The notes beneath the pieces are model-generated. The model did not search any database, was not told the origin of the DNA, and was given only the letters and a program-made list of their open reading frames with translations. Shown one piece after another: positions 3,181 through 39,709 of a stretch of 40,159 nt of DNA. Origin of the DNA: Nemertoderma westbladi. Its lineage: Eukaryota > Animalia > Xenacoelomorpha. A program made the position numbers and the translations under genes. The stretch's first letter is position 1, and each line of letters begins with the position of its first letter. The stretch spans positions 1 to 40,159 of the forward strand of contig JAUCBJ010001751.1 of assembly GCA_032718475.1 (NCBI GenBank), written 5' to 3'.

Positions 3181-3938
3181 CAGGAAATCTGAAGCATCAA
3201 TTTTTGCTTAGTTGGATATTGTAGAGCCTGGTACCGGTAGTAACTTTTGACAAGATACTGATACACACACAATCATATTTGTTGCATACTCGATATTAGT
3301 TAGTTTGTGATTAATTGATAAACATTTGACATTGGTTGATGTAGCTTCTGGTCATAAAATTTCTTATTTTCTTTATATACCAATGACCTGTAATATAGTG
3401 TCATTTGCTTGTGACATGTACTCATATTTTTATAAAAGCCTTTTATCATATTACATGACTTGACATTTGAAACACCATTAGTACAATGGGGTAGACGACT
3501 CGGAAATTTTTTTTCGAGTTTTCGTTGGTTTCATGTGAAAGAGCATGTGAAAAAACCCCAGAGAGCAATTTTACTTTAAAAAAATATATTGGATGAGTTA
3601 TAGCGATTTTAAAACGCAAAATTAGCAACATCGAAAAATCAGGCCGTTTCAGAAAACTGCACGAGTGACGTCAGCCATAACACAGCAACAGTCGTCAAGC
3701 GCAGTTGATTGGCTAATATAAAGTATAATATTGCAGTATCTAAAATAAAACAAATAATAAATGTAGCTATGTATTTATTTGGATGTGTATTTGTGTTATT
3801 TGATGGGTATTTGATACAGGGTTGTCAACTAGTACGCGAATCTAAATATAAAACAACCTGACCTTAGGCCTACTGCTGTACTAGCTACTGCAGTTGGTGC
3901 TGCAGCATATCACCCGCTTCCGTTCCGACTCCTCGATC

Positions 3939-5126
3939 ATGGAGACGGAAGGAATGGACAGCAATAACTCTGATACAGGCAATCCCAATGGGGATATTGT
4001 CTTAGTGAACTCCTGTTTAGTGGCGGTAGTGCAGGGGATGGCTACACAGATTTATGATGTTACTGCAGACAAGTGTCTGTCGCATTACCGCAATTGCGAT
4101 ATTCTTGCAGCAAAACAGGTTTTATTCAATAAACTAGGTTTAAAGGTTATTAGTAGACAGGACACTGCTGACCGCTCTGCAGCAGCGGCGAACCTGCGAG
4201 ATATTTATGAAGTACTAAAGAATTTGGATTCGTCGGGTTCTCTCCCGATCATTGCGGTCAGTGCGTTGGATGCACTGTCATTACCTCCGATAGCGTCGGG
4301 CGCCAGCACAAGTAACCCTCAGTTGTCCCGCGTGACAGATATTGATGCGACTTCTCGTTTATCTGCCTTAGACTCTAAAATAGAGGACCTTCAGAAAGTG
4401 TTATTAGATAGGTTAACGGTTATTGAAGCCAAAGTGTTGGTGCCTGTATCGGCTACGCCGACACCAACATCCGGTGGGGTTATTCCGGTGTCCTCGCAGA
4501 TGCCCAATCCTCCTAACCTAAACCGCCCGTCGTTTGCTCATACAGTCATGGGTAATTCACATCAATCAAGGCCGGGGTGGGGTTCCCAATCCCCAGGTCC
4601 TGCTCGAGGTCGAGGCGGTTATTACCAGGCTCTCGGCCCACAACGGTCGAACATTTCGGATGGTTTTCGGGCGAATCGGGTGGATTCTCCGGGCCACTCT
4701 CAGGGTGGAAGTCTAAAGCGACCTCGTCGTAACTCCACCAATGACGATGTGATCGAGGATGATGGATTCATTACTGCTGGGAGGAAAGGGAAGCATACGC
4801 GTAAACCAGTTCCTGTTGTGATCGGCACAGGGACAAGTTCCGCCGATAAAACGATCGGAAAATCGGCCCCAGTCGACATTTTCGCGTTTCGGCTCGCTCC
4901 GGGAACCACTTGCGACGAGATAAAGAACGGCCTAAAGGCCAACGGGATTGACTCCCTGGGTGTCACAATGGTTTCGCACAAGGAGTCAAGAACGACTAGT
5001 TTCAGGATCACCCTGCAGACGTTACACCTCGAGGCGGCATTAAACCCGGCCATATGGCCTCCCAGGGTTCATGTAAGAGAGTGGGTGTACTACTCGAGGC
5101 CAGCTACTGGGGTAGGTAACAGGTAA
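3939..5126 (+). CDS. LINE ORF1 (N-terminal conserved domain, coiled coil, C-terminal RRM-like domain)
   Basis: Open frame from 3894 (TTG); first ATG at 3939. Coiled-coil-like LSALDSKIEDLQKVL and C-terminal DIFAFRL...SFRITL...NPAIWPPRVHVREW, typical of CR1/L2-group ORF1. Ends 43 nt before ORF2. Confidence 0.8.
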   Translation: METEGMDSNNSDTGNPNGDIVLVNSCLVAVVQGMATQIYDVTADKCLSHYRNCDILAAKQVLFNKLGLKVISRQDTADRSAAAANLRDIYEVLKNLDSSGSLPIIAVSALDALSLPPIASGASTSNPQLSRVTDIDATSRLSALDSKIEDLQKVLLDRLTVIEAKVLVPVSATPTPTSGGVIPVSSQMPNPPNLNRPSFAHTVMGNSHQSRPGWGSQSPGPARGRGGYYQALGPQRSNISDGFRANRVDSPGHSQGGSLKRPRRNSTNDDVIEDDGFITAGRKGKHTRKPVPVVIGTGTSSADKTIGKSAPVDIFAFRLAPGTTCDEIKNGLKANGIDSLGVTMVSHKESRTTSFRITLQTLHLEAALNPAIWPPRVHVREWVYYSRPATGVGNR

Positions 5127-5169
5127 ACAGCAGTGACTATGACTCAGATTATTTATCTGCTAATTATCA

Positions 5170-8100
5170 ATGGCGGGCTCCGATTCAGACTCACAACTAT
5201 TATCTTTAACTTCGTATAATAGTACAGGTTTGTCCGATGACAAATGTGATTTTATTAATACATTAGCTCTGGGTTCAGACATTATCTGCCTGCAGGAACA
5301 TTTCAGGTTAAGTGATAATTTAGGGTATATAAAGAATAAGTTTCCTAATTTTCTATGTATACCGAAAGCTGCAGTTCATTTAAGTGAACAGACCGCCGGC
5401 CGCGCCTCAGGTGGCCTTTGTATTTTATTAAAAAGATACCTGGCGAAGTATGTCTCTGTCATTAAGACTAGTACGTATCGATTGCAGCATATACGTTTGT
5501 CGCTGCCCAATAATTGTAATATTGTCATTTTGAATTGTTACTTTCCAGTAGATAATCGTTCTACCACCGCAGTGTCTGATGAACTTCTGTTACTATTGAA
5601 TGAAATTAGGGATATAACACAAAATGCTAATACAGCTAACATAGTTATTTGCGGTGACCTAAACACAGATTTTTTACGCAATACAAGTCATGTTAATATT
5701 GTTCAGTCCTTTATACACGATAATAATTTAAATATACTTTGGGATACGAATACGGTAGATTATACATATTTAAGTGTTGTTAATAATTGTGTATATAAAT
5801 CAACTATTGATCATTTTTTATCATCGAGCAACTTTCTAAATAATTGTACGGAGGCAGGAGTAATTCATTGCGGTGAAAATCTCTCGCAACATAGCCCAAT
5901 CTATTTGAAATGTTCAGTTACTAAGCTAAATGAACATGTTTATGTTGACGTAACCTCAGCCAATAGCAAACCTTCTTTTGATCGGGCAACAGCCAATCAA
6001 AAAGCTCAATATAAAAGTGAATTTGGTGCCTCCCTGCAAGAAATTAATTTACAATGTGCTGATTGTAGTAATGTATTCTGTAATTGCAAAAACCATTTAG
6101 ATGCGTTACAAATATATATGTTTGATATTTTGGGGGCAATTGACAGTGCGGTGCAATGTTTACCATGGTTGGGCGGGGGTACCAATAATAATGGCAACAT
6201 TATTCCGCCACCTCTCCCAGGTTGGAATGAACACGTGAGACCCTTTAAGGAAGAATCAGTATTCTGGCATAGTGTGTGGGTGTCTGCTGGGAGACCGGAT
6301 GCGTCCAATAATCTGTTTCATTTGCGCCAGAGGTCCCGTGCTCAGTACAAATACGCAGTTCGTAGGTTGAAAAACAGTGTAGATGTAGTAAAACGTGATA
6401 AATTCATGCAGGCATGTTTCTCGAAAGACTGTGATATCTTTGCAGAAATCAGAAAGTTGCGCGGGAACCAAAAAGAGACCAGTCATTTAATTGATGGTGA
6501 ATCTTCACCTGAGGCTATTGCAGAAAAATTCGCGTCTATTTATTCCTCGTTATTCAATAAGGATTATAAGTCGGACTTCACAGAGATTGAGTCCAATATT
6601 CTAGAATCGCTTAGAGGCGTAAACATTGAAAGTGAGAGAGTAACTCGCGGCATGGTTCGGGCAGCCTTAGACAAGTTACAGCCCAAGAAAACCGATGTGA
6701 GTGGTATGTTCACCTCAGACTGCTTGAAACATGGTGGTTCTGAAATTATAGATCATTTATGTACCCTGTTCAATGGGTTTCTTGTACACGGATATGTGCC
6801 ACCGTTCCTATTATCAGCTTCTCTTGTTCCGCTCATAAAGGACAAACTCGGTGATATTTCAACCTCCAGCAATTACAGAGCTATTGCAATCGCATCCTTA
6901 GTGCTCAAAGTTCTAGAATGGGTGATGCTAATCTCCCAAGGTCATTGCTTGGCCGTAGATGATTTACAATTTGGGTTTCAGAAGCAGTCTAGTACGACAA
7001 GTTGCACATGGGCGGTCTCCGAAGTTCTCGGGTTCTACAGACGGTTCAATACGCCAGTATTTGGTTGCCTTTTAGATTTGAGTCGGGCCTTTGACCTGGT
7101 TGAATGGGTTAAGTTGTTTATGGAGCTTCTAAAGAAGGGGTTCTCGCCTTTATTTTTAAGGTTATTAATGTTCACATACAGGGAACAATGTTGTAATGTC
7201 AAGTGGGGTTCCGCAAACTCGCGCAAATTTTCCATCACTAACGGCTGTAGGCAGGGTTCGGTGGCGAGCCCATTTTTATTCTGTATTGTTATTAACACGT
7301 TAATCGTCCGTCTCAGAAAATCTCGAGTTGGTTGTCACATTGGGTCTCGCTTTTTCGGTATATTTGTATATGCCGACGACATACTTCTGCTGTGTCCATC
7401 AGTTCATGGTTTGCAGCATATGCTCAAGGATTGCGAATTATTTTCGAAGGATTTTAATATGGTATTTAGCACCAATACTAATCCAGATATAAGTAAATCG
7501 AAATGTATACCCTTTAATCGTTCTTGGTCTAAACCGTCTACAAACGTTACAGTAAATGAAGTTACATTACCATGGGTTAAGCAAGCGACATATTTAGGCA
7601 ACACTCTGCACTATTCAGGTAGTTTCAATTTCGACATGCAATTAAAGCGCGGTAAATTTATTGGAAAACTTAAATGTCTTAAGCAAGAATTTAGCTTCTC
7701 ACATCCGTCTTGTTTATGTAATTTGCAAAGAATTTATGCAACTAGTTTTTATGGTAGTTCACTATGGGATTTTTCGTCACATAATTTTTTGAAGATACTT
7801 AATTCATGGAATATTAATGTTAGATCAGTTTGGGGGTTGCCTTACAATACTCATAGATTCTTTGTGGAGGGTTTAGTAGATTTCCCATACCCAAAGTCAA
7901 TGATTTTTGGTAGGTTTGTGCAGTTTATTACTAAATCTATTCTAAATAGCCCAAAACAATCTATACAATTTTTAGGTAATCTTAATATTTTTGATTGTAG
8001 GTCAGTGAGCGGTGCAAATCTAAATTATATATCAACATCTATTGTTAATTCCCCGGTAGCCAGATTTCCAAATGTAAAGGAATGTTATAATTTTAAATGG

Positions 8101-8226
8101 TTCGGAGATAATTCGACTTACATAAATATGTGCAGGGAATTAGTTGATTGTAGATATACCTTGGAAGTACCAGGTTTTGAGCAGGATGAATTGGAAAATA
8201 TTTTGCATTATATATGTACGGAATAG
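5170..8226 (+). CDS. LINE ORF2: apurinic endonuclease + reverse transcriptase, 1018 aa, uninterrupted
   Basis: APE motifs SYNSTG, ICLQEH, GDLNTD, IDHF, SQHSPI. RT motifs NYRAIA, QFGFQ, LDLSRAFD, GCRQGSVASP, YADD, YLG. Confidence 0.95.
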   Translation: MAGSDSDSQLLSLTSYNSTGLSDDKCDFINTLALGSDIICLQEHFRLSDNLGYIKNKFPNFLCIPKAAVHLSEQTAGRASGGLCILLKRYLAKYVSVIKTSTYRLQHIRLSLPNNCNIVILNCYFPVDNRSTTAVSDELLLLLNEIRDITQNANTANIVICGDLNTDFLRNTSHVNIVQSFIHDNNLNILWDTNTVDYTYLSVVNNCVYKSTIDHFLSSSNFLNNCTEAGVIHCGENLSQHSPIYLKCSVTKLNEHVYVDVTSANSKPSFDRATANQKAQYKSEFGASLQEINLQCADCSNVFCNCKNHLDALQIYMFDILGAIDSAVQCLPWLGGGTNNNGNIIPPPLPGWNEHVRPFKEESVFWHSVWVSAGRPDASNNLFHLRQRSRAQYKYAVRRLKNSVDVVKRDKFMQACFSKDCDIFAEIRKLRGNQKETSHLIDGESSPEAIAEKFASIYSSLFNKDYKSDFTEIESNILESLRGVNIESERVTRGMVRAALDKLQPKKTDVSGMFTSDCLKHGGSEIIDHLCTLFNGFLVHGYVPPFLLSASLVPLIKDKLGDISTSSNYRAIAIASLVLKVLEWVMLISQGHCLAVDDLQFGFQKQSSTTSCTWAVSEVLGFYRRFNTPVFGCLLDLSRAFDLVEWVKLFMELLKKGFSPLFLRLLMFTYREQCCNVKWGSANSRKFSITNGCRQGSVASPFLFCIVINTLIVRLRKSRVGCHIGSRFFGIFVYADDILLLCPSVHGLQHMLKDCELFSKDFNMVFSTNTNPDISKSKCIPFNRSWSKPSTNVTVNEVTLPWVKQATYLGNTLHYSGSFNFDMQLKRGKFIGKLKCLKQEFSFSHPSCLCNLQRIYATSFYGSSLWDFSSHNFLKILNSWNINVRSVWGLPYNTHRFFVEGLVDFPYPKSMIFGRFVQFITKSILNSPKQSIQFLGNLNIFDCRSVSGANLNYISTSIVNSPVARFPNVKECYNFKWFGDNSTYINMCRELVDCRYTLEVPGFEQDELENILHYICTE

Positions 8227-9397: not shown

Positions 9398-10466
9398 TTA
9401 ACTTGTATAAAAATAATTACAATCGAAAAAGTGCGAATCCACAATCTAATCCAAAGTAATCTAAGTTTTGAAGCTTAATGAAACATCAATAAGCTACTGG
9501 ATTTCTACCACCTGGCAGTTTTAGCTACAAAATATGTTTTATTTTAATAGCTAACAACTGTATAGTTTGGGAAAAATAAGTATTATTCTGGAATAATTAA
9601 CTTGTCATGAATCAATTTCCACATTAAGATATCAAATAATGTATTCTTAACACAACACAAAAACACACTAAATAAATATTAGCTACACAATTTATTTTAG
9701 TTACTAAGAGATTTATATTGTATAGTAACCAATGAACATTTACTGCTGCACTAGTGACGTCACTAGTGCAGTTTTCTGAAACGGCCTGATTTTTCTATGT
9801 TGCTAATTTTGCGTTTTAAAATCGCTATAACTCGGCCAATATTAAATTTTTTTAAGTAAAATTGCTCTCTGGGGTTTTTTCACATGCTCTTTCACATGAA
9901 ACCAACGAAAACTCGAAAAAAATTTTCCGAGTCGTCTACCCCATTCGCTTTCGATGAGCCCATGTAGTTAGAATATAGCTATAATTGCGTCCTTCGTATC
10001 GTGGCCATTTTTTGCATTAGTCTCCGGTTATGTATTATGATTATGTAACAATGAATTAATGTTTGTTGAGAAACAACTGAGATGCCATTTATTAGCAAGT
10101 CGTAGGACTTGATTACTGTAAGAATTGTTTTTTATTATTGATAGTAACAATGTGTTGGCAAGCTGTATTTTTCGAGGTGTTTGTTATTATACATTTATTA
10201 TAGGAAGGGATCTTGGGGTCTTAGCCTCGAATGATAAGTTTATTTTACCGAAAATAACTTATCTTTTATTGGCGCAATTGTAGGACTAATCCCATCACAT
10301 GCGTACTTTTTAACCGGGTAGTGTACAAATTTAGGAATCGCGTAATTTTTTCTTGAAATTAATATCTCATATCTCTCCAAACCAAACACATTGTTACTAT
10401 CAATAATAAAAAATCAGGGGCTAATAAAATGGCAGCTGGCTTTGAAATTAATACTCCATATCTCAA

Positions 10467-10529
10467 GAACCTGTGGCCTAGTGGTTGTAGTCTCGGCTTC
10501 CACCTCGAGGTCCCAGGTTCGAATCTGAC
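10467..10529 (+). promoter_or_regulatory. tRNA-derived internal Pol III promoter (SINE-like head)
   Basis: A box TGGCCTAGTGG (10474-10484) and B box GGTTCGAATC (10516-10525). Anticodon-arm-like CTCGG-CTTCCAC-CTCGAG. No acceptor stem, so not a real tRNA. Confidence 0.8.
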
Positions 10530-10572
10530 ACCACGCTGATGAGACCCAGTAAGGTCGAAACGCGTACGTGGT
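10530..10572 (+). ncRNA. Minimal type I hammerhead ribozyme
   Basis: Stem I ACCACG (10530-35)/CGTGGT (10567-72). Core CTGATGA (10536-42). Stem II GACC-CAGTAA-GGTC. GAAA (10557-60). Very short palindromic stem III ACGCGT. GUA cleavage triplet (10564-66). Confidence 0.9.
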
Positions 10573-10743
10573 TTGGAGAGATATGAGATATTAATTTCAA
10601 GAAAAAATTACGCGATTCCTAAATTTGTACACTACCCGGTTAAAAAGTACGCATGTGATGGGATTAGTCCTACAATTGCGCCAATAAAAGATAAGTACGG
10701 TGGCTGAAAGCGGCCAAACAATATTAATTAAGCGTTTTTTTTT

Positions 10744-11007
10744 AATTTCAACCCGGGTTGAAAATAATATCAACCCGGGTTGAAAATAATATCAACCCGG
10801 GTTGAAAATAATATCAACCCGGGTTGAAAATAATATCAACCCGGGTTGAAAATAATATCAACCCGGGTTGAAAATAATATCAACCCGGGTTGAAAATAAT
10901 ATCAACCCGGGTTGAAAATAATATCAACCCGGGTTGAAAATAATATCAACCCGGGTTGAAAATAATATCAACCCGGGTTGAAAATAATATCAACCCGGGT
11001 TGAAATT
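10744..11007. repeat. Tandem array, 12 x 22 bp, palindromic core
   Basis: Unit CAACCCGGGTTGAAAATAATAT starts every 22 bp from 10749 to 10991. Core TCAACCCGGGTTGA is a 14-bp palindrome. Internal copies are identical. Confidence 0.95.
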
Positions 11008-11032
11008 ATCATTCGAGGCTAAGACCCCAAGA

Positions 11033-11356
11033 TCCCTTCCTATAATAAATGTATAGTAAGAATTGTTGGCTGACTGGCTGACTGACTGGCTGGCTGACTG
11101 ACTGACTGACTGATCTACAGCCAAAACTACTCTAACGATTTTGATGAAATTTTCACAGTGGCTAGATACCGCGATTCTAAGGTCCCTGGTATGTTCCGCT
11201 ATTTCGTCCATGAGCCATGGGCTCGAAAAATAGACATAAACGAAAAAAACGCCATTGGCGCAATGGTAAAATAACACCAATAACAGCTTGTTGATGGAAT
11301 TTACATTTGATTGATGACTTCCGACTTGCTTAACGGCGTCTTGACGCCGTCTCTAG
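11033..11356 (+). mobile_element. Short non-autonomous Helitron
   Basis: A|TC 5' end (TCCCTTCCTATAATAAATG) and an internal (CTGA/CTGG)n tract. 3' hairpin ACGGCGTC-TT-GACGCCGT (11333-11350) followed by CTAG|T. No TSD. Confidence 0.8.
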
Positions 11357-12644: not shown

Positions 12645-13826
12645 ACTACCGCTCAGCCACTGATATGCCTGTTAAGCTGCATCATGCCAGTCATGCAGTT
12701 GGGGAGAAGTTCTATTTCAGTAGCCTACCGGTAGGCCTATGCTATATTTTCAACAGAGTTGAAATTTCAACTTTAGGCATATTTTTTCAAATTCAACTTA
12801 TGGAGAAGGATTTAATTCATAAAAACAATAACGACACCCCTTCTGCTGTTCTGTTTATGTTGTGAAAGTTATATACTGGTAACGATGGTTAATTTTCCGA
12901 GTTACATCAATAAAAACACCCCTTCTGTCAGTCTGTCATGTCTTGGGGGCCTTCTGGCAGTCTGGCATCTGGGCCACCTGCCATTTTAGGGTTTAATATT
13001 TATACCGGTGCCTTAAAATTGAAATTGTTAAAGTTAGGTGTTGTGTATGTTGTTAAAGTGAAATTAAAGTTGAAATTTGAACTTCTCCCCGACTGCGACA
13101 GCTTGGGGGCTTCTGGGCCTCCTGCAATTTTAAGGCTGAATTTACAAATTAAAAGTTTAATTTAAACAAGTTTTAAATTTCAACTCAGCTGAAATTTGAA
13201 CTTCATCCCGACTTGGGGGGGGGGGGGGGCTGAGCTGGCAAACTATATTTTCTAAACCGGTACTTTTGTAAATTTTGCGAAAAAATATTTTTTTTAATTA
13301 TTGACATGACAACAATTTTTGTTTGAAGTTCTTAAACTCCAAATACTGACATCTGGTTGCATACTTGACACTTGTGCGCCGACCTCATAAGTCTACATGG
13401 ACTATCACTGTATCAGTCATCTTCAGGCCAGGTTGGAATTCATGCTGCAAAACTCGGACGCGTACCTGCGCGAATGACCGCAAACCAGATGCGCGTTGCA
13501 CGTTTGGGTGAGACAGGTGCGCGTTGCGCCTCAGCGCACAGCTCTGATCCCTCTGATGCGCACCACAAATTAATTGAAATCACGAAAATACACAAAAAAA
13601 ATTCGCTCGCTTCGCTCGCATTAGTTTCTCATTTCCAATTCTTCAAACAGTTAAATCACTTCACCATAATACTGTAATACCGGCAACCGGAGCTGAATTT
13701 GTCTATTTATTTTAACTACAGTACTCTATTGTTGTATTGTTATTAGGTCTATGCTATGCCGATGTTATGTTAGTAAACAGGTAAAGTCAGAAAGTAACAA
13801 TGTATTATAAGTATGACTTAATTATA

Positions 13827-14969
13827 GGGTAAATCTTTTCGACCTACGCGTAGGCCTACGCGTAGCTACGCGTAGCTACGCGTAGTTTGTAACTTCCATT
13901 CCTGTCATTTACCGGTAGGGCCAGACTTACTGCCTTTTCAACAACTACGCGTAGGTGTTTTAAAACTACGCGTAGTTATTTTGGAACTACGCGTAGGTAT
14001 TTTGAAACTACGCGTAGGTGCTACGCGTAGCTACGCGTAGGTGCTACGCGTAGCAGTCCTGATAACAATGATTTTTCATTTCAGGTCCGGTAGGGTTGAG
14101 TTGTTAGGCAAGTATCGGTATATGTCAGGTATCTGATTATCAGACAAATGTAATAACAGAATCGGAAACTCATATCTCTACATACAGCACTGGTAATAAA
14201 TAACATTCGGCTCTTTCACATACAAACACAGAGGATGAATAAAAAGTAAACTTAAAATTCACGTCTCATGATTCAAGTATCTTTGTTTCCATTGGATTTT
14301 TTAAATATTGAACAGTAGTAAATAAAGCGACCAGTCTACCGGTGAAGAGGTTAAGCGAAAGATGATAAATACTGCATATAATCAAATTGTTTGGTCAAAT
14401 AACAAGTGCAACCAATCATGGTAGACAATTTAGTCTCCCCCTTCCCTTGTCAAGGGGTTAACATATTAAATACAGTATCCTTGCCCTATCGTGAACAAAG
14501 GCAATAAAAAGCATAGAGAATCGATAATAACCATCGGCCTATTTCCTTTGTAAACTATTTTTGAACTCTAAACATTAATTATTAACACATTTTACCGCCC
14601 GCAACGCATGAAGTGAAGAATATGTAGTCTTCGCGTATTCCTCTATATAGAGTATACAGGTATAGGATACATTACTGTTGAAAGCATTTGATGGTTGTGG
14701 GTTGTTTATTGAACATACCGTATTGTGTCTTATTTTAGTACTGACTCGCTTGGAATACGTAAGCCTACTAATGATAAACGACGTATAGGCATAGTTATGG
14801 GTAGCACCTATGCGTAGGTCGCGTAGGACCTACGCGTAGCTACGCGTAGCACCTACGCGTAGTTATTGTTAAAACTCTGAAACTGGTGATATATGACCCA
14901 ATGTTGCGAACTACGCGTAGCTACGCGTAGCTACGCGTAGGCCTACGCGTAGGTCGAAAAGATTTACCC
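13827..14969. mobile_element. Nested non-autonomous TIR element with CTACGCGTAG palindrome arrays (superfamily uncertain)
   Basis: ~60-bp TIRs GGGTAAATCTTTTCGACCTACGCGTAGGCCTACGCGTAG... 8-bp duplication TAATTATA (13819-26, 14970-77). Many subterminal copies of the 10-bp palindrome CTACGCGTAG. Confidence 0.85.
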
Positions 14970-15220
14970 TAATTATAAGCCAACTGTATGTTTAAGCCTA
15001 ATTGTTCGGTAGGCCTATACAAAGTATTGCTGGCAGACTGGTACCGGTACCTATTTCAATATTCGTTTTTTTGAAATTACATGTTTTGTTTGTAATCTAA
15101 AATAATATTTTCTGTTATAAAAGCAGTGAGCCCGATGGGCCACCACAGTAGTGGATTATAAAAATATTTTTTAATATTAACAATTTTGATGTTGCAAAAA
15201 TTACATTTATTATGTAAGCC

Positions 15221-15257: not shown

Positions 15258-16424
15258 GTAAAGATAAGCTTAAAACGCTCAAACTTGTAAAATAGAAATG
15301 TAAAATTGTTCTTATGAACAGTGCGATTTTTTGAGATATGCATGACATGAGCTGCGCGATTTTGTATGGATTATAATGAGCTGCGCGACGAGCCAATTTC
15401 AGGTGCGCGGTGATTTCAAAACAACAAAGCGTACCTGCGCGCTCATGCATGAATTCCAACCTGGTCTTCAGGGAGTCAGAAGTAGAACCTTCGGTGTTCT
15501 GGCGGTGTATCAGCTGATCAGGATGACCATCCCCGCATGCTGCTTCGCTGCATCTGTGATAGGTGACTGATATCCTCTGGTCATCCCCTACTGCCATACT
15601 GAATATCCTTAAATTTCTGAATTTATACAGTTATAGACATTATGTTTTGCAAGGCAGCAAAGCAAGTGAGCAATGTTAATCTATTTAATAAAAAAAAACC
15701 TATAAAACCTAAAGGTTTTTTTAAATAACCTATGCAAAAAACCTAAACCTAGGCCTATTTTTTTTCTTTAAAAACCCTAATTTTTTTCCATGTTATTTCG
15801 CTGTTGCCAGTCAGATTTTTATTTACTCTAAATAATACCAGTACTGTAATAATTGAGTACCGGTACTTTAACTGTTTAATTTACTATAAAATTTAGCAGC
15901 GATGAAGCATAATAGCCTATACCGGTACTTTCCCAAAAATCCAAAGGGTTCTTCCCCAAAGAAAGTAAAGTGTTAGAGATAGTTGCCGTAATTCTGTAAT
16001 TATTGCATATTGCTATTGGCATCTGTACTGCTAATATGAGAGAGCAGTATCACCAGTATTAGTATTTAGAATGCTAGAATGGAATGGCTGTGATTGGCTA
16101 GTTTGTGCATGAACAATCTAGACTGTCATAGGTCAGTAGTATCACAGTCACCAGTCATGTCTGTCAATTTTACACTCAACTGATCAGTAGGCCTCTTTGT
16201 TTCTTTCTTTCTCTTATTTGATTTTGGTGGATATGAAATTATATATCTGTATATTGGTATTTTCAATTTGTGAGGGCAAGTCTGGTAGTCTGGATGGATA
16301 TGATGTTTAATAAATACTATACAGCTATACTAGATTTAGAAGTTAATAAATAAGGTATGCAGGTCCCAGTACAAACATCTACACATACGTCAGGACTGTA
16401 ATACCACGAAAGGACAACTAAAGT

Positions 16425-19400
16425 ATGCCTGTCGATTTTGATGTGAAAGAATTCTGTCTTAACCTCCAGGCTACTAAGCCGCCCTATTACTGCCCTGTTA
16501 GAGGTTGTGCGAAGCGGTATCTGAGCTCCAATGGGTTGCAATCCCACATGTTAAACGTCGACCACGATGCTCAGCAAACCGACGAGGGTACGCCTCATAG
16601 TGGCCGGAGCACCCCGCTTAGTAACCGGAAACGGCGCCGTAAAACTGCGCTCATTAGCTTGAGGAAAACGAAAAAGCCAGTGTATTCCCGTCCCCCATCC
16701 CCTGCCGTGGACTATCGCCCTCAGTTTCAGAATACAAACTTAACTTACGAAGAATCTCAAAGAATTGTCGAAGTCGATATCAGTGGGAAAACTTATAGAA
16801 TCGATATCCACCTTCCTTTAAGTGTTGACTACGTCGATCCTGAACCTGTGGTGGAAGATGACGCCCTGAAACCAACAAATAAAGATGACAAATCTCCTGA
16901 GAGGCCGCATAATGTGGATAAAGGGTCGAAGTTTGTTAAACAAATGGAAACACCGACAATACCGAGGCAATCAGAAGCAAAGCAGACAGTCCCAGAAGCA
17001 CATTATCGTCTGTTAACTAGCCCAATACAACTACCGGAAATAGGGGAAAGAAATACTGAATATTACAAGCATGTTGGTAAGAGTGACAGACAGTTGGACG
17101 AGGAAATTGAGTACGATATGGATGAGGAAGATCATGCCTGGTTGGAGATTATAAACGGGGAAAGACAGAAGAAAAAACTGTCGATGGTTGGCCAGGACTT
17201 ATTCGAGGGGTTGATGGATCGTTTGGAAAAGGAATCTTACTTTGAGTCGTGTAGCAATGGCAACGCTAACCAGTCCGTTATTGACGAGGACGCTGTCTGC
17301 AATATCTGTAACGACGGAGAGTGCGCCAACAGTAACGTTATTCTATTCTGCGACATGTGCAATCTACCTGTGCACCAAGAGTGCTACGGTGTTCCATACA
17401 TTCCAGAAGGGCAGTGGCTATGCCGTCGGTGCCTGCAGTCGCCATCGCGGGGAGTAGATTGCGTCCTGTGCCCCAATAAAGGCGGGGCTTTTAAACAGAC
17501 CGACGATGGGCGCTGGGCCCACGTGGTCTGCGCGCTCTGGGTTCCCGAGGTCTGCTTCGCTAACTCAGTGTTTCTAGAACCCATCGATAGTATTAAAGCG
17601 ATCCCCCCTGCCCGTTGGCGTCTTAACTGCTACATATGTCGGCAGCGTGGCTCTGGTGCGTGTATTCAATGCCACAAAGCCAACTGCTACACGGCTTTCC
17701 ATGTGACCTGCGCCCAACAGGCTAATCTTCATATGAAGATGGAGCAGGTTAACGAGTGCGAGCTCTCTGGTGGGACAGTGGCCGTTAGGAAGACGGCCTA
17801 CTGCGATCTGCACACGCCGGTGGGCTCCGAGTGCAAACCTATCATCGATTCGACCAACGATGGAGTCATAATAACGGAGGAGAAACGCAAACAGATGCGA
17901 CAGGCTCGTCGAACTCTGGCCGAGAAACGGTCCGCGGTCCCGTTGGTTTCCATTCCATTCATTCCACCCTCCAAGATTAAAAAAATACTAATTGGTTGTA
18001 CGCTACAGAAAAAGGATGAATTTATGACGAGACTTCAAGCGTATTGGTTACTGAAGCGCCAATCGAGAAACGGAGTTCCGTTACTGCGACGCCTCCAAAC
18101 GAGCCACGGAAGTGGGCGCGCGACGCAGGTGGAAACGGCGGACCAGAGCGCGTACCGCAGTCAGCTGCGTTTCTGGAAACGATTGCGACAGGACTTGGAG
18201 CGATCGCGATTACTGGTGGAACTTATACGGAAGCGCGAGAAGCTGAAGAGAGAGCAGATGAAGGTTAAACAACTGATACTGGATTACCAGTTGCAACCCT
18301 TCTCTCTGCTGCTCAAGCGAACTCTCGACTTGTTACAGGCCAAAGACACTCAGAAGGTATTCGTGGAGGCCGTAGATCCTGAAGCCGTTCCAGATTATTA
18401 CGTCGTCGTCTCGGAGCCAATGGACTTCGCGGAAATGAGGAGGAAGGTAGAGGAACACGTGTACGTGTCGTTCGATCAGTTCGAACACGACTTCGGGTTG
18501 ATTGTCGATAATTGTTTAACCTACAATAACAAGGACACCATGTATTACAGATGCGCTACGTTCCTGCGGGAGAAGGGCGGTGCGATCGTGAGACACGCCC
18601 GTCGGCTGGTGCAGACCATCGGCGTGGACGAACCGACCGGGATGCATCGCGAGCCGATCGCACCGCAGACTTTCGCCGATCGCAACAGCGGCGACATTCT
18701 GGATGAAATCGATTCGGCGCTCAATAAGGAGAACCGCGACTCGTTGTCGTTGAAGGAGCAGTTGAAGGTGTTTCTGGACCTGTTGGACCGGGGGATGATT
18801 CAGGGTGTTGGAATAAAGAAGAATAAACGGTTAAAGGTATTGCGGATAGAGATCGGTACATTGCGACGCAGACTCGCGCAGGAGCGGGATCGCAAGCTGC
18901 GCGAGTTACTGGCCAGTCGCAGCGAGACGGAGAGTGATTCTAGAACGCCGTCGCCCAAGAAACGGACCTCGTCTACGCCCAAGAAGAAACGTCGCACTCC
19001 GGCCAGTTGTAAGAAAGACGAAGGCATGGCGCAGTCGGTTGGTAAGTCGGTAACAGACAGCGGGTCTGAGGCGTCCTTCAGGGTCCCTCTACCGGCGCCG
19101 TTACGAATCGATATAAATCCATATTGGCCGCAAATCAACGGGAGTCTAACGCCGCGCCGCAGTTCCCGTAAGAGTCCCGCCAATAGGAACATCAACGAGT
19201 TCGTGTATGAGCCACCCACCAGAAGAAGCAGTTCGTTTGCCGTCCACAAGGCGGCGCTGGAGTCAAGGGCCAATGCGTTTACGAGCCACAGGGGGGCGCA
19301 GCAGTCGGGTTCCTTTACTGGACACCAGGCGGGGTTGGATACGGACTTCTTCGATTCGTACGACGAGGAGTCTGAGCCGGGATCGGGGCCGGCGTCCCCG

Positions 19401-20402
19401 GTCCATCGCACGCGCAGACTCCCCGAGACCGCGCATCTCATGGCGCCGTACGTGCGCGGCAGTGGCGATAGCTTCACGCGCTACCGAAACGAACGCAGTT
19501 TAATTCTTAGCAACTCCGAGAGCGAAATGGATCGGAGGCGGAGCTCGTCGGATAGCGATGAGGAATCGACGGGGGAGGAGTCCGGGACCGACGGGGAGGA
19601 TGAGGTCTCGAACCTCTCCGGGAAAACGTTCGGGAAGCCGAGACTCGGGAAGTCCGCGGGTCTCGGTGTCTCCGATCTCAGTGAGTTCAAGGAGCGCGCC
19701 CCGCAACCACTGGATATAGTGTGGGCGAAGTGCCGCGGTTACCCGTCTTACCCCGCCCTGGTTATAGACCCGGAAGTGCCGCGTATGGGAGTCGCACATA
19801 ACGGCGTCCCCATCGCGGTACCGCCCTTGGAGGTGCTTGCCAGGCGACCTACCGACGGCTGCAAGGATTATTACCTCGTCCTGTTTTTCGATACGAAACG
19901 CACGTGGCAGTGGCTCCCGGCGGATAAACTTTGTCCGTTTGGTATCGACGCCAGCCACGATAAGGCGCGGTTGCTGGAGGGGCGCCATTGCGCGGCTAGG
20001 AGTTCCGTTAAAGGCGCGTACTCTCGGGCTCTGGAGCACATGGAGGCCGTCGCCGACCCTGGTTACGATGACGACGAAGTCTTTATGGAAGTTGCCAACG
20101 GGAAATCCGCGGGGAATCCTATGGAATCCCGCTGGAACGCGCTCTCGGAGAAAATTACTAACAGCAGTGAATACCGACCTGGACTGACTAACGGCATGGC
20201 AGAGCAATCGGTTGAGAGCAAAGCGAGTGAAACCGACGGTGCAGAGGCCCGTTACGAACCACTGATAAGCGAGGAGAGCGAACGGGACTCTGGGATGAGC
20301 AATGGGTTCGTTAGAGGGACCAGGACGTTCTCTCGCACTGCTCCATTTATTAATGGTAACTCTCATCCCCAGGATAGCAAAAATAATGCAGATAGTAGCT
20401 AA
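16425..20402 (+). CDS. BRPF1: BRPF/peregrin family bromodomain-PHD-PWWP scaffold of MOZ/MORF acetyltransferase complexes, 1325 aa, single ORF
   Basis: N-terminus MPVDFDVKEFCLNLQATKPPY with a C2H2 finger. EPC-like EYDMDEEDHAWL...MDRLEKESYF. PZP module (CNICNDGEC...NVILFCDMCNLPVHQECYGVPYIPEGQWLCRRC). Bromodomain (VPDYY...PMDF...NCLTYN). PWWP (VWAKCRGYPSYPAL). Confidence 0.96.
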   Translation: MPVDFDVKEFCLNLQATKPPYYCPVRGCAKRYLSSNGLQSHMLNVDHDAQQTDEGTPHSGRSTPLSNRKRRRKTALISLRKTKKPVYSRPPSPAVDYRPQFQNTNLTYEESQRIVEVDISGKTYRIDIHLPLSVDYVDPEPVVEDDALKPTNKDDKSPERPHNVDKGSKFVKQMETPTIPRQSEAKQTVPEAHYRLLTSPIQLPEIGERNTEYYKHVGKSDRQLDEEIEYDMDEEDHAWLEIINGERQKKKLSMVGQDLFEGLMDRLEKESYFESCSNGNANQSVIDEDAVCNICNDGECANSNVILFCDMCNLPVHQECYGVPYIPEGQWLCRRCLQSPSRGVDCVLCPNKGGAFKQTDDGRWAHVVCALWVPEVCFANSVFLEPIDSIKAIPPARWRLNCYICRQRGSGACIQCHKANCYTAFHVTCAQQANLHMKMEQVNECELSGGTVAVRKTAYCDLHTPVGSECKPIIDSTNDGVIITEEKRKQMRQARRTLAEKRSAVPLVSIPFIPPSKIKKILIGCTLQKKDEFMTRLQAYWLLKRQSRNGVPLLRRLQTSHGSGRATQVETADQSAYRSQLRFWKRLRQDLERSRLLVELIRKREKLKREQMKVKQLILDYQLQPFSLLLKRTLDLLQAKDTQKVFVEAVDPEAVPDYYVVVSEPMDFAEMRRKVEEHVYVSFDQFEHDFGLIVDNCLTYNNKDTMYYRCATFLREKGGAIVRHARRLVQTIGVDEPTGMHREPIAPQTFADRNSGDILDEIDSALNKENRDSLSLKEQLKVFLDLLDRGMIQGVGIKKNKRLKVLRIEIGTLRRRLAQERDRKLRELLASRSETESDSRTPSPKKRTSSTPKKKRRTPASCKKDEGMAQSVGKSVTDSGSEASFRVPLPAPLRIDINPYWPQINGSLTPRRSSRKSPANRNINEFVYEPPTRRSSSFAVHKAALESRANAFTSHRGAQQSGSFTGHQAGLDTDFFDSYDEESEPGSGPASPVHRTRRLPETAHLMAPYVRGSGDSFTRYRNERSLILSNSESEMDRRRSSSDSDEESTGEESGTDGEDEVSNLSGKTFGKPRLGKSAGLGVSDLSEFKERAPQPLDIVWAKCRGYPSYPALVIDPEVPRMGVAHNGVPIAVPPLEVLARRPTDGCKDYYLVLFFDTKRTWQWLPADKLCPFGIDASHDKARLLEGRHCAARSSVKGAYSRALEHMEAVADPGYDDDEVFMEVANGKSAGNPMESRWNALSEKITNSSEYRPGLTNGMAEQSVESKASETDGAEARYEPLISEESERDSGMSNGFVRGTRTFSRTAPFINGNSHPQDSKNNADSS

Positions 20403-22203: not shown

Positions 22204-22216
22204 ATTTTTGTTGCAG
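22204..22216 (+). other. Splice acceptor 8 nt upstream of the ZNF143-like ATG
   Basis: ATTTTTGTTGCAG|ATTCCGGTATG after an AT-rich intron-like stretch. Confidence 0.6.
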
Positions 22217-22224
22217 ATTCCGGT

Positions 22225-24024
22225 ATGGATGAGGTCAACAATCGAATAGTTGCTCATCTAATGACATTGGAAGACGGATCCCTGGCCCTCATACCTACAG
22301 ACACAACAGGTCGCTCTCTCACTGATTGTGTTTATCAACAAATGCTCATCGACAACCTCCCAGAGGACAAAACAAAATCCACAATATATCCCGATCGCAT
22401 AGAAAATGCACGGGACGAGGAAGTTATAGACACAGATCAGTTTATGCTCCCCGTAACCCACAGTGCCTTCCCTATCTCAATGCCTGCCTCCTCAGAAACG
22501 CAACCAAGCAGTTCGAGTAATATGTTTCAACAACTGTCCACCGCAGCCATGGAACTTCCAAAACCCGAAAAAGACAGTTTGGAAAATGAATTAATTCCAT
22601 TCTTCTCTACTAGCAATATTTTGTCTGATCTGCATCCGACAGTCCAAACCGAGAGTGTATCTTTATCCAATGCCGTCACTCAAAGCGATGTCATTGGGTA
22701 TTCGTCGTTATCCTTATCACACGGACTTACTCAATCGAACTATGTTTCTCAAGAAACTCGGTCTATGGGGAGTTTAGATACGCTGGATATTAATTCCGAA
22801 GCGATTCTGCCAACCATACTACCGGAAGTAACCGAAAGCTCCTCACTTCCGCATCGCATTCCCTCGCTGAACGAGACACCAGAATGGACGACCCTGGTCC
22901 CCAAAATTAGACAAAACCTTGTCCCCGTCCGTCGCAGGAAGCCAGTGGCTGGGGGCGGCGTGCGCGTCGATAAACCCCCCCAATTCCAGTGCCCCGTGGA
23001 GGGCTGCAATAAAATGTTCACCACCGCCCACCACGTCAAGTGCCACATCAAGATCCACACGGGGGAACAGGCATACTTCTGCCCCTTCGATGCATGTGAT
23101 AAAAGGTTTACGACTAATTACAGTTTAAAATCACACGTCCGGACTCACACCCAAGAGAAACCTTATCCCTGCCCCGAAGAGTCTTGTACTAAAGCGTTTA
23201 AAACCTCGACAGACCTGCAGAAACACGTTCGAACGCACACCGGCGAAAGGCCGTTTAAATGCCCGTTTGAAGTATGCGAACGATCCTTCACCACTTCCGA
23301 TATTCTCAAGGTTCACATACGTCTGCACACTGGGGAGACGCCGTTTGTCTGCGATTTCAGCGGCTGTGGTCGTGGGTTTAAGTCGGCGAGTAACTTTAAG
23401 AACCACCGTCGTATCCATACCGGTGAGAAACCATTCCAATGTAACCACAAGGATTGCGGTAAGAGATTCACCGAGTACTCCAGTCTCTACAAGCACCGCG
23501 TTACTCACTCGCCTAATAGACCCTATCAGTGTCCGGATTGCCATAAATCATATCGACAAAACTCATCTAGACAATACCACAGACGCCGGTCGCACCCACA
23601 AGATGTCGGTGAGTGTGGTAATCCAAGTAGTGACTTTGGCGATTCTTTAGTGTCGGATGATGGAGTTACCTCTCTTCCATTATTTTCGCCTCTCAACTAC
23701 GAGATCTTCACTATAGAGCCGAATTCGCAAGACGAGCAACGTTTGTTCGGCGAAGGTTGTTCAACTCAGGCGGCTCAATTATTAATAGGCAAATCCATTT
23801 CCTCCAATCAGGAAACTCATTCGATGGTGATAGGCAAAACTAAATTTCCCAATCTCGAGCCTCAATATATGCTAACGGTTACTTCTTCATCCAATCAAGA
23901 GCCTCAATATATGCTAACGGTTACTTCTTCATCCAATCAAGAGCCTCAATGTATGCTAACAGTTACTTCTTCATCCAATCAAGAGCCTCAATGTATGCTA
24001 ACAGTTACTTCTTCATCCAATTAA
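22225..24024 (+). CDS. ZNF143: ZNF143/ZNF76 (Staf) family transcription factor, seven C2H2 fingers
   Basis: Finger helices [36 protein letters not shown] and [11 protein letters not shown] match ZNF143/76 in order. One Staf-type LEDGS repeat at the N-terminus. The true start may lie on an upstream exon. Confidence 0.88.
23851..24021 (+). repeat. In-frame 42-bp coding tandem repeat x4
   Basis: N(L/Q)EPQ(Y/C)MLTVTSSS units start at 23851, 23893, 23935 and 23977. Confidence 0.95.
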
Positions 24025-24448: not shown

Positions 24449-27400
24449 TATCGATATTGCACCAGTTACACCGTCTGCTACCTTACCGATATTGCACCAG
24501 TTACACCGCTGCTACCTTACCGATATTGCACCAGTTACACCGCTGCTACCTTACCGATATTGCATCAGTTACACCGCTGCTACCTTATCGATATTGCACC
24601 AGAAACACCGCTGCTACCCTACCGATATTGCACCAGTGAGACCGCTGCTACCTTATCGATATTGCACCAGTTACACCGTCTGCTACCCTACCGATATTGC
24701 ACCAGTTACACCGTCTGCTACCTTACCGATATTGCACCAGTTACACCGCTGCTACCTTACCGATATTGCACCAGTTACACCGCTGCTACCTTATCGATAT
24801 TGCACCAGTTACACCGCTGCTACCTTATCGATATTGCACCAGTTACACCGCTGCTACCCTACCGATATTGCACCAGTTACACCGCTGCTACCTTATCGAT
24901 ATTGCACCAGTTACACCGTCTGCTACCTTACCGATATTGCACCAGTTACACCGTCTGCTACCGTACCGATATTGCACCAGTTACACCGCTGCTACCTTAC
25001 CGATATTGCACCAGTTACACCGTCTGCTACCTCACCGATATTGCACCAGTTACAACGTCTGCTACCTCATCGATATTGTACCAGTTACACCGCTGCTATC
25101 TTATCGATATTGCACCAGTTACACCGCTACTACCTTACCGATATTGCACCAGTTACACCGCTGCTACCTTATCGATATTGCACCAGTTACACCGTCCGCT
25201 ACCTTATCGATATTGCACCAGTTACACCGTCTGCTACCTTACCGATATTGCACCAGTTACACCGTCTGCTACCTTATCGATATTGCACCAGTTACACCGT
25301 CTGCTACCCTACCGATATTGCACCAGTTACACCGTCTCCTACCCTACCGATATTGCACCAGTTACACCGTCTCCTACCTTACCGATATTGCACCAGTTTC
25401 ACCGTCTGCTACCTTATCGATATTGCACCAGTTACACCGTCTGCTACCTTACCGATATTGCACCAGTTACACCGCTGCTACCTCACCGATATTGCACCAG
25501 TTACACCGTCTCCTACCCTACCGATATTGCACCAGTTACACCGTCTCCTACCTTACCGATATTGCACCAGTTTCACCGTCTGCTACCTTATCGATATTGC
25601 ACCAGTTACACCGTCTCCTACCTTACCGATATTGCACCAGTTACACCGCTGCTACCTTACCGATATTGCACCAGTTACACCGTCTGCTACCTTACCGATA
25701 TTGCACCAGTTACACCGCTGCTACCTCACCGATATTGCACCAGTTACAACGTCTGCTACCTCATCGATATTGTACCAGTTACACCGCTGCTATCTTATCG
25801 ATATTGCACCAGTTACACCGCTGCTACCTTACCGATATTGCACCAGTTACACCGCTGCTACCTTATCGATATTGCACCAGTTACACCGTCCGCTACCTTA
25901 TCGATATTGCACCAGTTACACCGTCTGCTACCTTACCGATATTGCACCAGTTACACCGTCTGCTACCTTATCGATATTGCACCAGTTACACCGTCTGCTA
26001 CCCTACCGATATTGCACCAGTTACACCGTCTCCTACCTTACCGATATTGCACCAGTTACACCGTCCGCTACCTTATCGATATTGCACCAGTTACACCGTC
26101 TGCTACCTTATCGATATTGCACCAGTTACACCGTCCGCTACCTTATCGATATTGCACCAGTTACACCGTCTGCTACCTTATCGATATTGCACCAGTTACA
26201 CCGTCCGCTACCTTATCGATATTGCACCAGTTACACCGTCTGCTACCTTACCGATATTGCACCAGTTACACCGTCTGCTACCTTACCGATATTGCACCAG
26301 TTACACCGTCTGCTACCTTATCGATATTGCACCAGTTACACCGTCTGCTACCTTACCGATATTGCACCAGTTACACCGTCCGCTACCTTATCGATATTGC
26401 ACCAGTTACACCGTCTGCTACCTTATCGATATTGCACCAGTTACACCGCTGCTACCTTATCGATATTGCACCAGTTACACCGTCTGCTACCTTATCGATA
26501 TTGCACCAGTTACACCGTCTGCTACCTTACCGATATTGCACCAGTTACACCGTCTGCTACCTTACCGATATTGCACCAGTTACACCGTCTGCTACCTTAC
26601 CGATATTGCACCAGTTACACCGTCTGCTACCTTACCGATATTGCACCAGTTACACCGCTGCTACCTTACCGATATTGCACCAGTTACACCGCTGTTACCT
26701 TACCGATATTGCACCAGTTACACCGCTGTTACCTTACCGATATTGCACCAGTTACACCGCTGCTGCCTCATCGATATTGCACCAGTTACACCGCTGCTAC
26801 CTTACCGATATTTCACCAGTTACACCGCTGCTACCTTACCGATATTGCACCAGTTACACCGTCTGCTACCTTATCGATATTGCACCAGTTACACCGTCTG
26901 CTACCTCATCGATATTTCACCAGTTACACCGCTGCTACCTTATCGATATTGCACCAGTTACACCTCTGTTACCTTACCGATATTGCACCAGTTACACCGC
27001 TGCTACCTCATCGATATTGCACCAGTTACACCGCTGCTACCTTACCGATAATGCACCAGTTACACCGTCTGCTACCTTACCGATATTGCACCAGTTACAC
27101 CGTCTGCTACCTCATCTATATTGCACCAGTTACACCGCTGCTACCTTATCGATATTGCACCAGTTTCACCGCTGCTACCTTACCGATATTGCACCAGTTA
27201 CACCGTCTGCTACCTCATCGATATTGCACCAGTTACACCGCTGCTACCTTACCTATTGCACCAGTTACACCGTCTGCTACCTTATCGATATTGCACCAGT
27301 TACACCGCTGTTACCTTACCGATATTGCACCAGTTACACCGCTGCTACCTCATCGATATTGCACCAGTTACACCGCTGCTACCTTACCGATATTGCACCA

Positions 27401-30400: not shown

Positions 30401-31954
30401 TCTCCTACCTTACCGATATTGCACCAGTTACACCGTCTGCTACCTCATCGATATTGCACCAGTTACACCGCTGCTACCTTACCGATATTGCACCAGTTAC
30501 ACCGTCTGCTACCTCTTCGATATTGCACCAGTTACACCGTTTGCACCTTACCGATATTGCACCAGTTACACCGTCTGCTACCTTACCGATATTGCACCAG
30601 TTACACCGCTGCTACCTTACCGATATTGCACCAGTTACACCGTCTGCTACCTCTTCGATATTGCACCAGTTACACCGTCTGCTACCTTACCGATATTGCA
30701 CCAGTTACACCGCTGCTACCTTATCGATATTGCACCAGTTACACCGTCTGCCACCTTACCGATATTGCACCAGTTACACCGTCTGCTACCTTACCGATAT
30801 TGCACCAGTTACACCGCTGCTACCTTATCGATATTGCACCAGTTACACCGTCTGCTACCTTACCGATATTGCACCAGTTACACCGTCTCCTACCTTACCG
30901 ATATTGCACCAGTTACACCGTCTGCTACCTCATCGATATTGCACCAGTTACACCGCTGCTACCTTACCGATATTGCACCAGTTACACCGTCTGCTACCTC
31001 TTCGATATTGCACCAGTTACACCGTTTGCACCTTACCGATATTGCACCAGTTACACCGTCTGCTACCTTACCGATATTGCACCAGTTACACCGCTGCTAC
31101 CTTACCGATATTGCACCAGTTACACCGTCTGCTACCTTATCGATATTGCACCAGTTACACCGCTGCTACCTTACCGATATTGCACCAGTTACACCGTCTG
31201 CTACCTTACCGATATTGCACCAGTTACACCGTCTGCTACCTCTTCGATATTGCACCAGTTACACCGTTTGCTACCTTACCGATATTGCACCAGTTACACC
31301 GTCTCCTACCTTACCGATATTGCACCAGTTACACCGTCTGCTACCTTACCGATATTGCACCAGTTACACCGTCTGCTACCTTATCGATATTGCACCAGTT
31401 ACACCGTCTGCTACCTCTTCGATATTGCACCAGTTACACCGTTTGCTACCTTACCGATATTGCACCAGTTACACCGTCTGCTACCTTACCGATATTGCAC
31501 CAGTTACACCGCTGCTACCTTATCGATATTGCACCAGTTACACCGTCTGCTACCTTACCGATATTGCACCAGTTACACCATCTGCTACCTTACCGATATT
31601 GCACCAGTTACACCGCTGCTACCTTATCGATATTGCACCAGTTACACCGTCTGCTACCTTACCGATATTGCACCAGTTACACCGTCTGCTACCTTACCGA
31701 TATTGCACCAGTTACACCGCTGCTACCTTATCGATATTGCACCAGTTACACCGTCTGCTACCTTACCGATGTTGCACCAGTTACACCGTCTCCTACCTTA
31801 CCGATATTGCACCAGTTACACCGTCTGCTACCTCATCGATATTGCACCAGTTACACCGCTGCTACCTTATCGATATTGCACCAGTTACACCGCTGCTACA
31901 GTACCGATATTGCACCAGTTACACCGCTGGCTGCTACCTTACCGATATTGCACC
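24449..31954. repeat. 7.5-kb satellite of interspersed 34- and 35-bp units (~215-220 copies, estimated from length)
   Basis: Consensus CGATATTGCACCAGTTACACCG(T)CTGCTACCTTA(C/T). No stop triplet on the + strand, hence the multi-kb ORFs in all three frames. Confidence 0.97.
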
Positions 31955-32251: not shown

Positions 32252-32441
32252 CAACTTTTGAGGACATCACGCCATTGTATTGGCCTGTACATTTAGTATT
32301 GTATTGGTGTTGTAATGTCCCTTGTTTATGTGGTAACCAATGACGGCGAGCTGTAAAGTTACGGCGTCATTGGTTACTACGTAAACAATAGATGGTATCT
32401 ATCATTATAATTGCCTGACAGCCAGATAGGCCTACTGCATT
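32252..32441 (+). repeat. Dispersed repeat; diverged inverted copy at 39526-39709
   Basis: Shared blocks CCTGTACATTTAGTA, TAATGTCCC, CATTGGTTAC.ACGTAAACAATAG and GCCAGATAGGCCTACT. Internal hairpin at about 32323-32388. Confidence 0.75.
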
Positions 32442-32530
32442 ACCTAGCCTTAGACGGGGTATAGCTATTAATAACCAGTAGCTATAAACTATTAACATAG
32501 CTCCAAACGACACCATAAATATAAGCTAAC

Positions 32531-39525: not shown

Positions 39526-39709
39526 GTAATGCAGTAGTAGGCCTATCTGGCTATCAAGCAATTTCTAATAAATACTGCCTATTGTTTACGTGGTAACCAA
39601 TGAAGGCGTGTTGTAAAGTCTGCTAATGGGACATTACTTAATAATAATACACCAATACAATATACTAAATGTACAGGTCAATACAATACTGTAATGTCTT
39701 CTAGAGTTG
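39526..39709 (-). repeat. Second copy of the 32252-32441 dispersed repeat
   Basis: Reverse complement aligns block-wise with 32252-32441. Confidence 0.75.

Follow-up and report, generated by a model that had tools for sequence, protein, structure and literature searches.

The window analysed here, a stretch of 40,159 nucleotides from Nemertoderma westbladi (contig JAUCBJ010001751.1), contains a single 926-bp insertion at 10130-11055, flanked by a 12-bp target-site duplication (TSD), which is probably a retrozyme with RNA polymerase III (Pol III)-type boxes moved by the enzyme of a Penelope-like element (PLE). We favour this reading because the inverted arm, the one-sided tail and the TSD match the published PLE pattern, and because a repeat of this build is what has been defined as a retrozyme. 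The design itself, a promoter before a hammerhead in tandem units, is already known, with schistosome Sm-alpha and the non-LTR retrozymes as precedents. In the mainly open-access literature that was searched, the combination of promoter and hammerhead was found for Schistosoma only, and no retrozyme copy bearing a scar of the PLE type was described. The locus bears on which polymerase transcribes animal retrozymes and on which enzyme inserts them. Both questions could be addressed within one genome, since the family is young, uniform and abundant, carries Pol III-type boxes and has left a PLE-type scar that can still be read.

Hammerhead and tRNA-like segment

A type I hammerhead motif lies on the forward strand at 10530-10572, with a predicted cut after A10566 and a palindromic helix III at 10560-10565, as recognised by Rfam RF00163 and by a two-copy cofold. 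It is the sole descriptor match in the window and did not arise in any of 3000 shuffles. The Rfam model Hammerhead_1 aligned over its whole length (1-45 of 45) with 26 bits and an E-value of 1.3e-4, which is below the gathering score of 34; the whole window searched against Rfam gave nothing at gathering level. Helix I comprises 6 bp and can be extended to 11 with one bulge, helix II comprises 4 bp and the palindromic helix III 2 bp, and the pairing probabilities reached 0.75-0.96 for stem I and 0.99-1.0 for stem II. The initial annotation had placed a type I hammerhead at exactly these positions, which our searches confirmed, but had described it as minimal. Its form is that of the "canonical" metazoan hammerhead, with a helix I of 6 bp, a helix II of 4 bp and a helix III of 1-2 bp with a palindromic loop, which the accessible text of PMC4209133 describes as needing a dimer. 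Two copies of the present motif co-fold in silico via the palindromic helix III, and the hammerhead is likely to cleave itself as a dimer.

The strand at 10442-10464 pairs with 10578-10600 (87% pairing), as had been proposed, and was identified both as an inverted repeat and in the fold. This pairing lengthens helix I and bears the tRNA-like part as a side branch. The fold of 10441-10696 had a z-score of -3.56, and none of 200 shuffles was equally stable.

The side branch, at 10467-10529 on the forward strand, resembles tRNA-Gly(TCC) and carries an A box at 10474-10484 and a B box at 10516-10525 or 10516-10526. The two boxes had been annotated at 10474-10525, and they are indeed present; neither strand of the window holds another A+B pair spaced 30-65 nt apart. 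Such a pair appeared in one of 3000 shuffles of 10385-10742, scored with a descriptor written after the sequence was seen. Within the head, only positions 10489 and 10526 vary in at least 3% of the family in the public runs X1 and X2, and both boxes are intact in nearly all of the family depth. With C10526, the family allele that makes up 99.96% of the X1 depth, a G-U pair of the extended helix I would become G-C.

The derivation of this head from a tRNA, also claimed by the initial annotation, fared less evenly. Its best BLAST match among 50,697 phage records was a tRNA-Gly-TCC, aligned in register and on the same strand at an E-value of 0.5, with 43 of 77 columns identical, including 14 in a row across the anticodon loop. 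The head matched 20 phage records, 18 of them inside tRNA genes (16 from related phages and two tRNA-Met); none of its 18 plasmid matches fell in tRNA genes, plasmid records listing no RNA genes. ARAGORN made no tRNA call on the head, and the Rfam tRNA model did not match it at E<=10. A relaxed ARAGORN call of the head was discarded, as calls also arose in 301 and 522 of 1000 shuffles at the lowered thresholds. A tRNA origin of the head is at most moderately supported, and less well than the hammerhead. We also observed that the bases before the tRNA-like part, compared as 10465-10471 against 10567-10577, resemble the strand that would prolong helix I if the tRNA piece were absent. There is thus a hint in the sequence that the tRNA piece may have been inserted into an older hammerhead stem.

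Repeat unit and family

In the public runs, the hammerhead and its head are part of a 411-412-bp unit, the end of which leads into its own start. The proposal of a 256-nt SINE that starts at 10441 with a 5' head therefore does not hold, the locus itself extending over 10130-11055. In a unit closed in this way the boxes come shortly upstream of the cut site, and a monomer freed by cleavage would carry the "head" near its 3' end. The window version of the unit is 412 nt long, with a GC content of 39% and a circular fold z-score of -3.1. No open reading frame lies between the hammerheads of the closed unit, and the short frames over the locus had no Pfam match.

A 441-nt contig of the run X4 reads through 10193-10384 (+), 10568-10385 (-) and 10157-10222 (+), and its ends overlap by 30 nt, giving a closed 411-nt cycle. 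As the RNA nature of X4 is a guess, its organism label another one and the evidence one contig at a depth of 13.8, X4 says nothing on expression or circles; moreover, a closed contig also arises from tandem DNA and does not discriminate it from circular RNA. The joint 10384/10568 was present in four of four runs. The junctions of the 411-nt cycle stand in DNA runs, where loose ends before 10385 were seen in at least six X1 and at least five X2 contigs. Regarding consecutive hammerhead units, all cycle junctions were found in DNA runs, the contigs are too short for two hammerheads, and the present locus has one.

The summed depth over 10128-10568 was 1-8e5 in X1 and 0.5-6e5 in X2, against about 25 on the unique flank, and at 10526 it reached 5e5 and 2.5e5, respectively. 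Summed depth is no copy number by itself, and dividing it by 31 overlapping words and comparing it with the flank of about 25 gives an inferred floor of about 640 copies in X1 and 350 in X2. X1, X2 and X5 represent three studies, one of which is possibly the window's own source. Continuous cover and contigs across 10387-10604 tie the head to the hammerhead in a high-copy family, as had been assumed, and the two are not chance neighbours. The linkage holds throughout the family, and the element does not have its 5' end at the head. A classical tRNA SINE was accordingly rejected: high family depth continues upstream of the head and on around the cycle, and the unit did not match the window's LINEs. 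Within 10530-10696, two variants of at least 1% were listed, none of them inside the hammerhead; the uniformity of the family points to youth, gives no covariation and is too great for selection to be visible.

The body of the unit, at 10569-10696 (+), is 100% identical to its inverted copy at 10257-10384. The standard hairpin that follows it in the unit is represented at 10232-10262 (-) and contains the sole T4 run of the sense strand. Loose ends behind 10696 confirmed the hairpin as the family form, at least 20 X1 and at least 16 X2 contigs continuing past 10696 with it. A depletion of T4 runs on the sense strand was considered as a signal and dropped (one run seen, P about 0.6). In the forward copy, a minor variant at 10697-11005 (+) replaces the hairpin, consisting of 46 nt with a T9 run (10735-10743) and then 12 copies of a palindromic 22-mer detected by TRF. 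The depth over its start (10703-10764) was 530-880 versus about 25 on the unique flank, corresponding to about 20 copies. Position 10696, which had been taken for the end of a tail of about 130 nt, is thus the point where a 128-nt inverted repeat stops because this copy carries the variant insert. The variant could be either a subfamily or a piece of the driver element. Rfam miRNA and sRNA matches at 10709-11022 were set aside, as they lie below the gathering scores and stem from the palindromic array.

Family sequence patterns gave 0 matches in viral contigs and 0 and 0 in prokaryote genomes, and one further pattern match in the collections was discarded as it came without the family's flanking sequence. 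Scans for a B box together with a hammerhead returned 13 viral and 16 metagenome loci, none of which was BLAST-similar to the locus at E 0.01. Two hammerhead-like cores on metagenome contigs, both unrelated to the family, may be mentioned: L028:3424-3476 adjoins a long RT-like ORF pair on the opposite strand, and L014:1239-1293 lies beside short repeats. The search for a partner combining reverse transcriptase (RT) and GIY-YIG domains, as recommended with the initial annotation, found RTs in the window, both of them LINE-type; none of 79 frames was GIY-YIG, and the collection scans were empty or unrelated.

Anatomy of the insertion

The longest exact repeat common to both junction regions, GTAAGAATTGTT, forms the left TSD copy at 10118-10129 and the right copy at 11056-11067, both on the forward strand. 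A 12-bp TSD would occur by chance with a probability of about 1e-5 when 3 nt of slack is allowed on each side; the final TT of the left copy overlaps the A-run that ends the inverted arm. Between the two copies, two arms abut head to head, one running inverted from 10384 to 10130 and the other forward from 10385 to 11055, as delimited by inverted repeats and a side-by-side reading. The 5'-truncated inverted arm (255 bp) comprises the body, the hairpin, segment b and the tail. The forward arm is composed of segment a, a spacer, the stem strand, the tRNA-like part, the hammerhead, the body, the variant insert and segment b. The perfect 128-nt inverted repeat pairs 10257-10384 with 10569-10696, and further inverted pairs are 10181-10240 with 11003-11062 and 10128-10156 with 10385-10413.

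The first base of the inverted arm lies 2 nt past the predicted hammerhead cut site, a proximity expected by chance in about 1% of cases and seen here in one case. Counted in unit coordinates past the cut site, the forward arm stops at 199 nt and the inverted arm at 257 nt. The inverted-arm end alone thus bears a 58-nt extension, or tail, at 10130-10187 (-), which is 71% A+C, the highest value of 17 windows scored across both arms (0.71), and folds poorly (-0.5 kcal/mol). Its outer end is commonly used in the family: at 10133/10134, long unlike flanks follow in at least ten X1 and at least nine X2 contigs, and X5 contained at least one contig with a loose end at 10133 and at least one at 10137. 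This recurrent end is an A-rich tract internal to the continuing repeat. The forward-arm end at 11055 was not among the recurrent ends listed for the public runs, and no cluster of 5' ends at the hammerhead cut site appeared among the loose ends listed there. Both arms carry the same two alleles, each present in about 15-17% of the family depth, which lends modest support to one donor for both arms, as judged from two common alleles.

The public runs contain loose ends behind 10124 and 10129, which hint at an empty site. The target, about 10090-10129 and 11056 to about 11350, is itself a repeat, with a depth of about 6e4 in X1, that was split by the insertion; close to its beginning is a 6-bp hairpin, it also has a run of (CTGA)n, and we take it to be Helitron- or HINE-like. 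When an RNA loop matching the target was sought, the longest shared word was 6 nt, which did not exceed that of shuffles.

The remainder of the window holds two apparently intronless genes on the forward strand. One, BRPF1/peregrin at 16422-20402, is a single uninterrupted frame of 1326 aa that marks the window as animal, presumably invertebrate, DNA. Over its length, the core shares 63-71% identity with proteins of hemichordates, molluscs, echinoderms, arthropods and vertebrates; none of the 120 matches listed is a close relative. The other is a C2H2 zinc-finger gene at 22204-24024 with an uninterrupted 606-aa frame, presumably MTF1-like. An NHL-repeat fragment at 39911-40078 (-), with a Pfam E-value of 1.2e-6, is probably an exon of a neighbouring gene. 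The repeats include an intact-looking LINE at 3885-8226 (+), with a 413-aa ORF1 and a 1020-aa ORF2 bearing AP-endonuclease and RT, and a second, broken LINE at 36244-38368. There are also a satellite of 217 copies of a 35-mer (24452-31954) and an array of 18 copies of a 36-mer (34409-35072). Other inverted repeat pairs, at 13825-14971, 3485-3797 with 9654-9945, and 32252-32443 with 39526-39709, are probably MITE-like or dispersed repeats.

Origin of the insertion and comparison with known systems

The anatomy is of the Penelope type, favouring the Penelope-like mobilisation that had been suggested from the sequence, and the insertion was likely made by the reverse transcriptase/endonuclease of a PLE. 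Pol III transcription, cleavage, circles and the driver together make up a course of events that we infer from the DNA. Transcription from the boxes of one unit would pass the single T4 and continue into the following unit, whereupon two hammerheads would pair via the palindromic helix III and cut after A10566, so that the RNA's 5' end would be the cut site. As the promoter would then lie near the 3' end of the cut RNA, only copies longer than one unit could breed. Cut monomers could possibly be closed into circles by RtcB. The PLE protein would bind the A/C-rich part about 200-260 nt after the cut site and nick both strands of the AT-rich target, 12 bp apart; cDNA would start on each strand at an internal site of its own, the two sites lying 58 nt apart, and the two cDNAs would be joined head to head. 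Against Pol III read-through, the T4 lies before the putative priming sites and could stop Pol III. Other points tell against the reading as a whole: no partner PLE came to light in the window or in the collections scanned, the hammerhead scores below gathering and the head has no Rfam tRNA match, the tail exceeds the published length, and neither the 11055-type end nor a cluster of 5' ends at the cut site is among the ends listed. Only one of nine Xenopus retrozyme dimers cleaved in vitro, according to the accessible text of Li et al. (bioRxiv 10.64898/2026.07.22.740005), and for the anole PLE, cleavage was not needed for insertion in vitro, as far as PMC11167929 is accessible. The present copy is predicted to be a dead end because it has one hammerhead and a T9 run downstream.

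Twin priming by a LINE can also give a 5' inversion with a TSD. A hammerhead repeat could accordingly have been moved by an AP-endonuclease LINE that primed on an A-rich tract, the locus arising from twin priming on one 1.5-unit RNA, which we regard as unlikely. The recurrent end at 10133/10134 is an A-rich tract, as such priming would have it, and the 5' end of the forward arm lies at most 29 nt from the outer end of the inverted arm in unit coordinates, as for one RNA primed twice. The intact LINE at 3885-8226 shows that such enzymes exist in the genome, and LINEs are named as possible drivers in PMC7229834, as far as its text is accessible. However, the forward arm ends at 11055 inside the unit and without an A-tail, the recurrent end is internal to a continuing repeat, and the unit has no similarity to the window's two LINE regions (best E 0.14).

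We deem it quite unlikely that the unit is the pseudo-LTR (pLTR) of an autonomous PLE, or a solo derivative of one, with a captured tRNA-Gly fragment whose boxes are passengers of Pol II read-through. In the accessible parts of PMC8557442 and PMC3846280, pLTRs carry hammerheads and the same inverted and tail structures, and the newt satellite 2 is reported to be Pol II-transcribed (PMC6765202, as accessible). The bases at 10465-10471 also look as though a fragment had been inserted into a continuous helix I. But the unit forms a closed cycle that contains no open reading frame from one hammerhead to the next, and nearly all of the family depth retains both boxes, spaced as in a tRNA. The Rfam score below gathering and the missing covariation would also suit an ordinary DNA repeat or satellite that spread without an RNA step and bears a non-functional hammerhead-like match. 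Such an origin is very improbable: all core positions and both stems of the hammerhead are present (0 of 3000 shuffles), the TSD, 5' truncation and inversion point to retrotransposition, and 2 nt separate the start of the inverted arm from the cut site, a single case with a chance probability of about 1%.

A more specific version of the PLE-moved retrozyme is possible, although doubtful: a Pol III "SINE" parasitising Penelope rather than LINE enzymes, its tRNA-Gly promoter captured as a side branch of helix I, and the locus recording a single 1.5-unit RNA, cut by the hammerhead, on which both strands of the target had primed, each at a different internal site. If true, it would amount to direct evidence, in vivo, for the movement of retrozymes by PLE proteins and for a template whose 5' end is set by ribozyme cleavage.

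Compared with known systems, tRNA-derived SINEs have A and B boxes, a tRNA-like segment and dispersed copies with TSDs, their tRNA head being the 5' end of the unit. The present locus differs from them in that the mobile unit does not begin with its tRNA-like part, no tail in common with a LINE was seen and a hammerhead is present.

Cervera and de la Pena (2020; PMC7229834) characterise animal non-LTR retrozymes as tandem repeats of 150-450 bp that have a type I hammerhead, a GC content below 50% and a TSD longer than 4 bp. They have at least two consecutive hammerhead units and linear and circular RNA, with circularisation by RtcB in vitro, and PLEs are named there as a strong candidate driver. 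For Xenopus, homology and co-occurrence of retrozymes and pLTRs have been reported, the mechanism being left unresolved in the accessible part of Li et al. (bioRxiv 10.64898/2026.07.22.740005). The locus is like the non-LTR retrozymes in its non-coding head-to-tail unit within the 150-450-bp range, type I hammerhead, GC below 50%, TSD above 4 bp, high copy number and lack of an LTR, and like the dimer-cleaving amphibian retrozymes, as partly accessible, in its short palindromic helix III. It is unlike the former in having A/B boxes and a tRNA-Gly-like segment, the accessible text of PMC7229834 and of bioRxiv 10.64898/2026.07.22.740005 containing no Pol III promoter, inverted arm or tail.

Schistosoma provides tandems with the promoter before the hammerhead, in which the cleaved unit has its promoter at the 3' end (PMC6765202, as accessible). 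In the same review, Sm-alpha and Sj-alpha share with the locus a Pol III-type promoter followed by a hammerhead and the need for tandems. They belong to another animal lineage. The accessible text of the review names no driver RT, whereas the locus shows a PLE-type scar.

PLE insertions are described as having next to them a 5'-truncated copy in inverted orientation and, optionally, a tail of 30-40 bp on one side (PMC8557442), with TSDs of 8-10 bp in a rotifer (PMC3846280). A PLE protein purified from the anole cleaves both strands of the target and extends them, synthesis beginning within an AC-rich region at two sites that mark the limits of the tail (PMC11167929). The locus departs from these elements, so far as described there, in lacking an ORF, in its Pol III-type boxes, in its tail of 58 rather than 30-40 nt and in its TSD of 12 rather than 8-10 bp. 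It resembles them in the head-to-head inverted truncated copy, the one-sided extension, the TSD and the AT-rich target, as well as in ends internal to a continuing repeat and an A/C-rich end region downstream of the hammerhead; the inverted 5'-truncated copy, the one-sided tail and the TSD, all traits of PLE-type insertion, occur together at this one locus.
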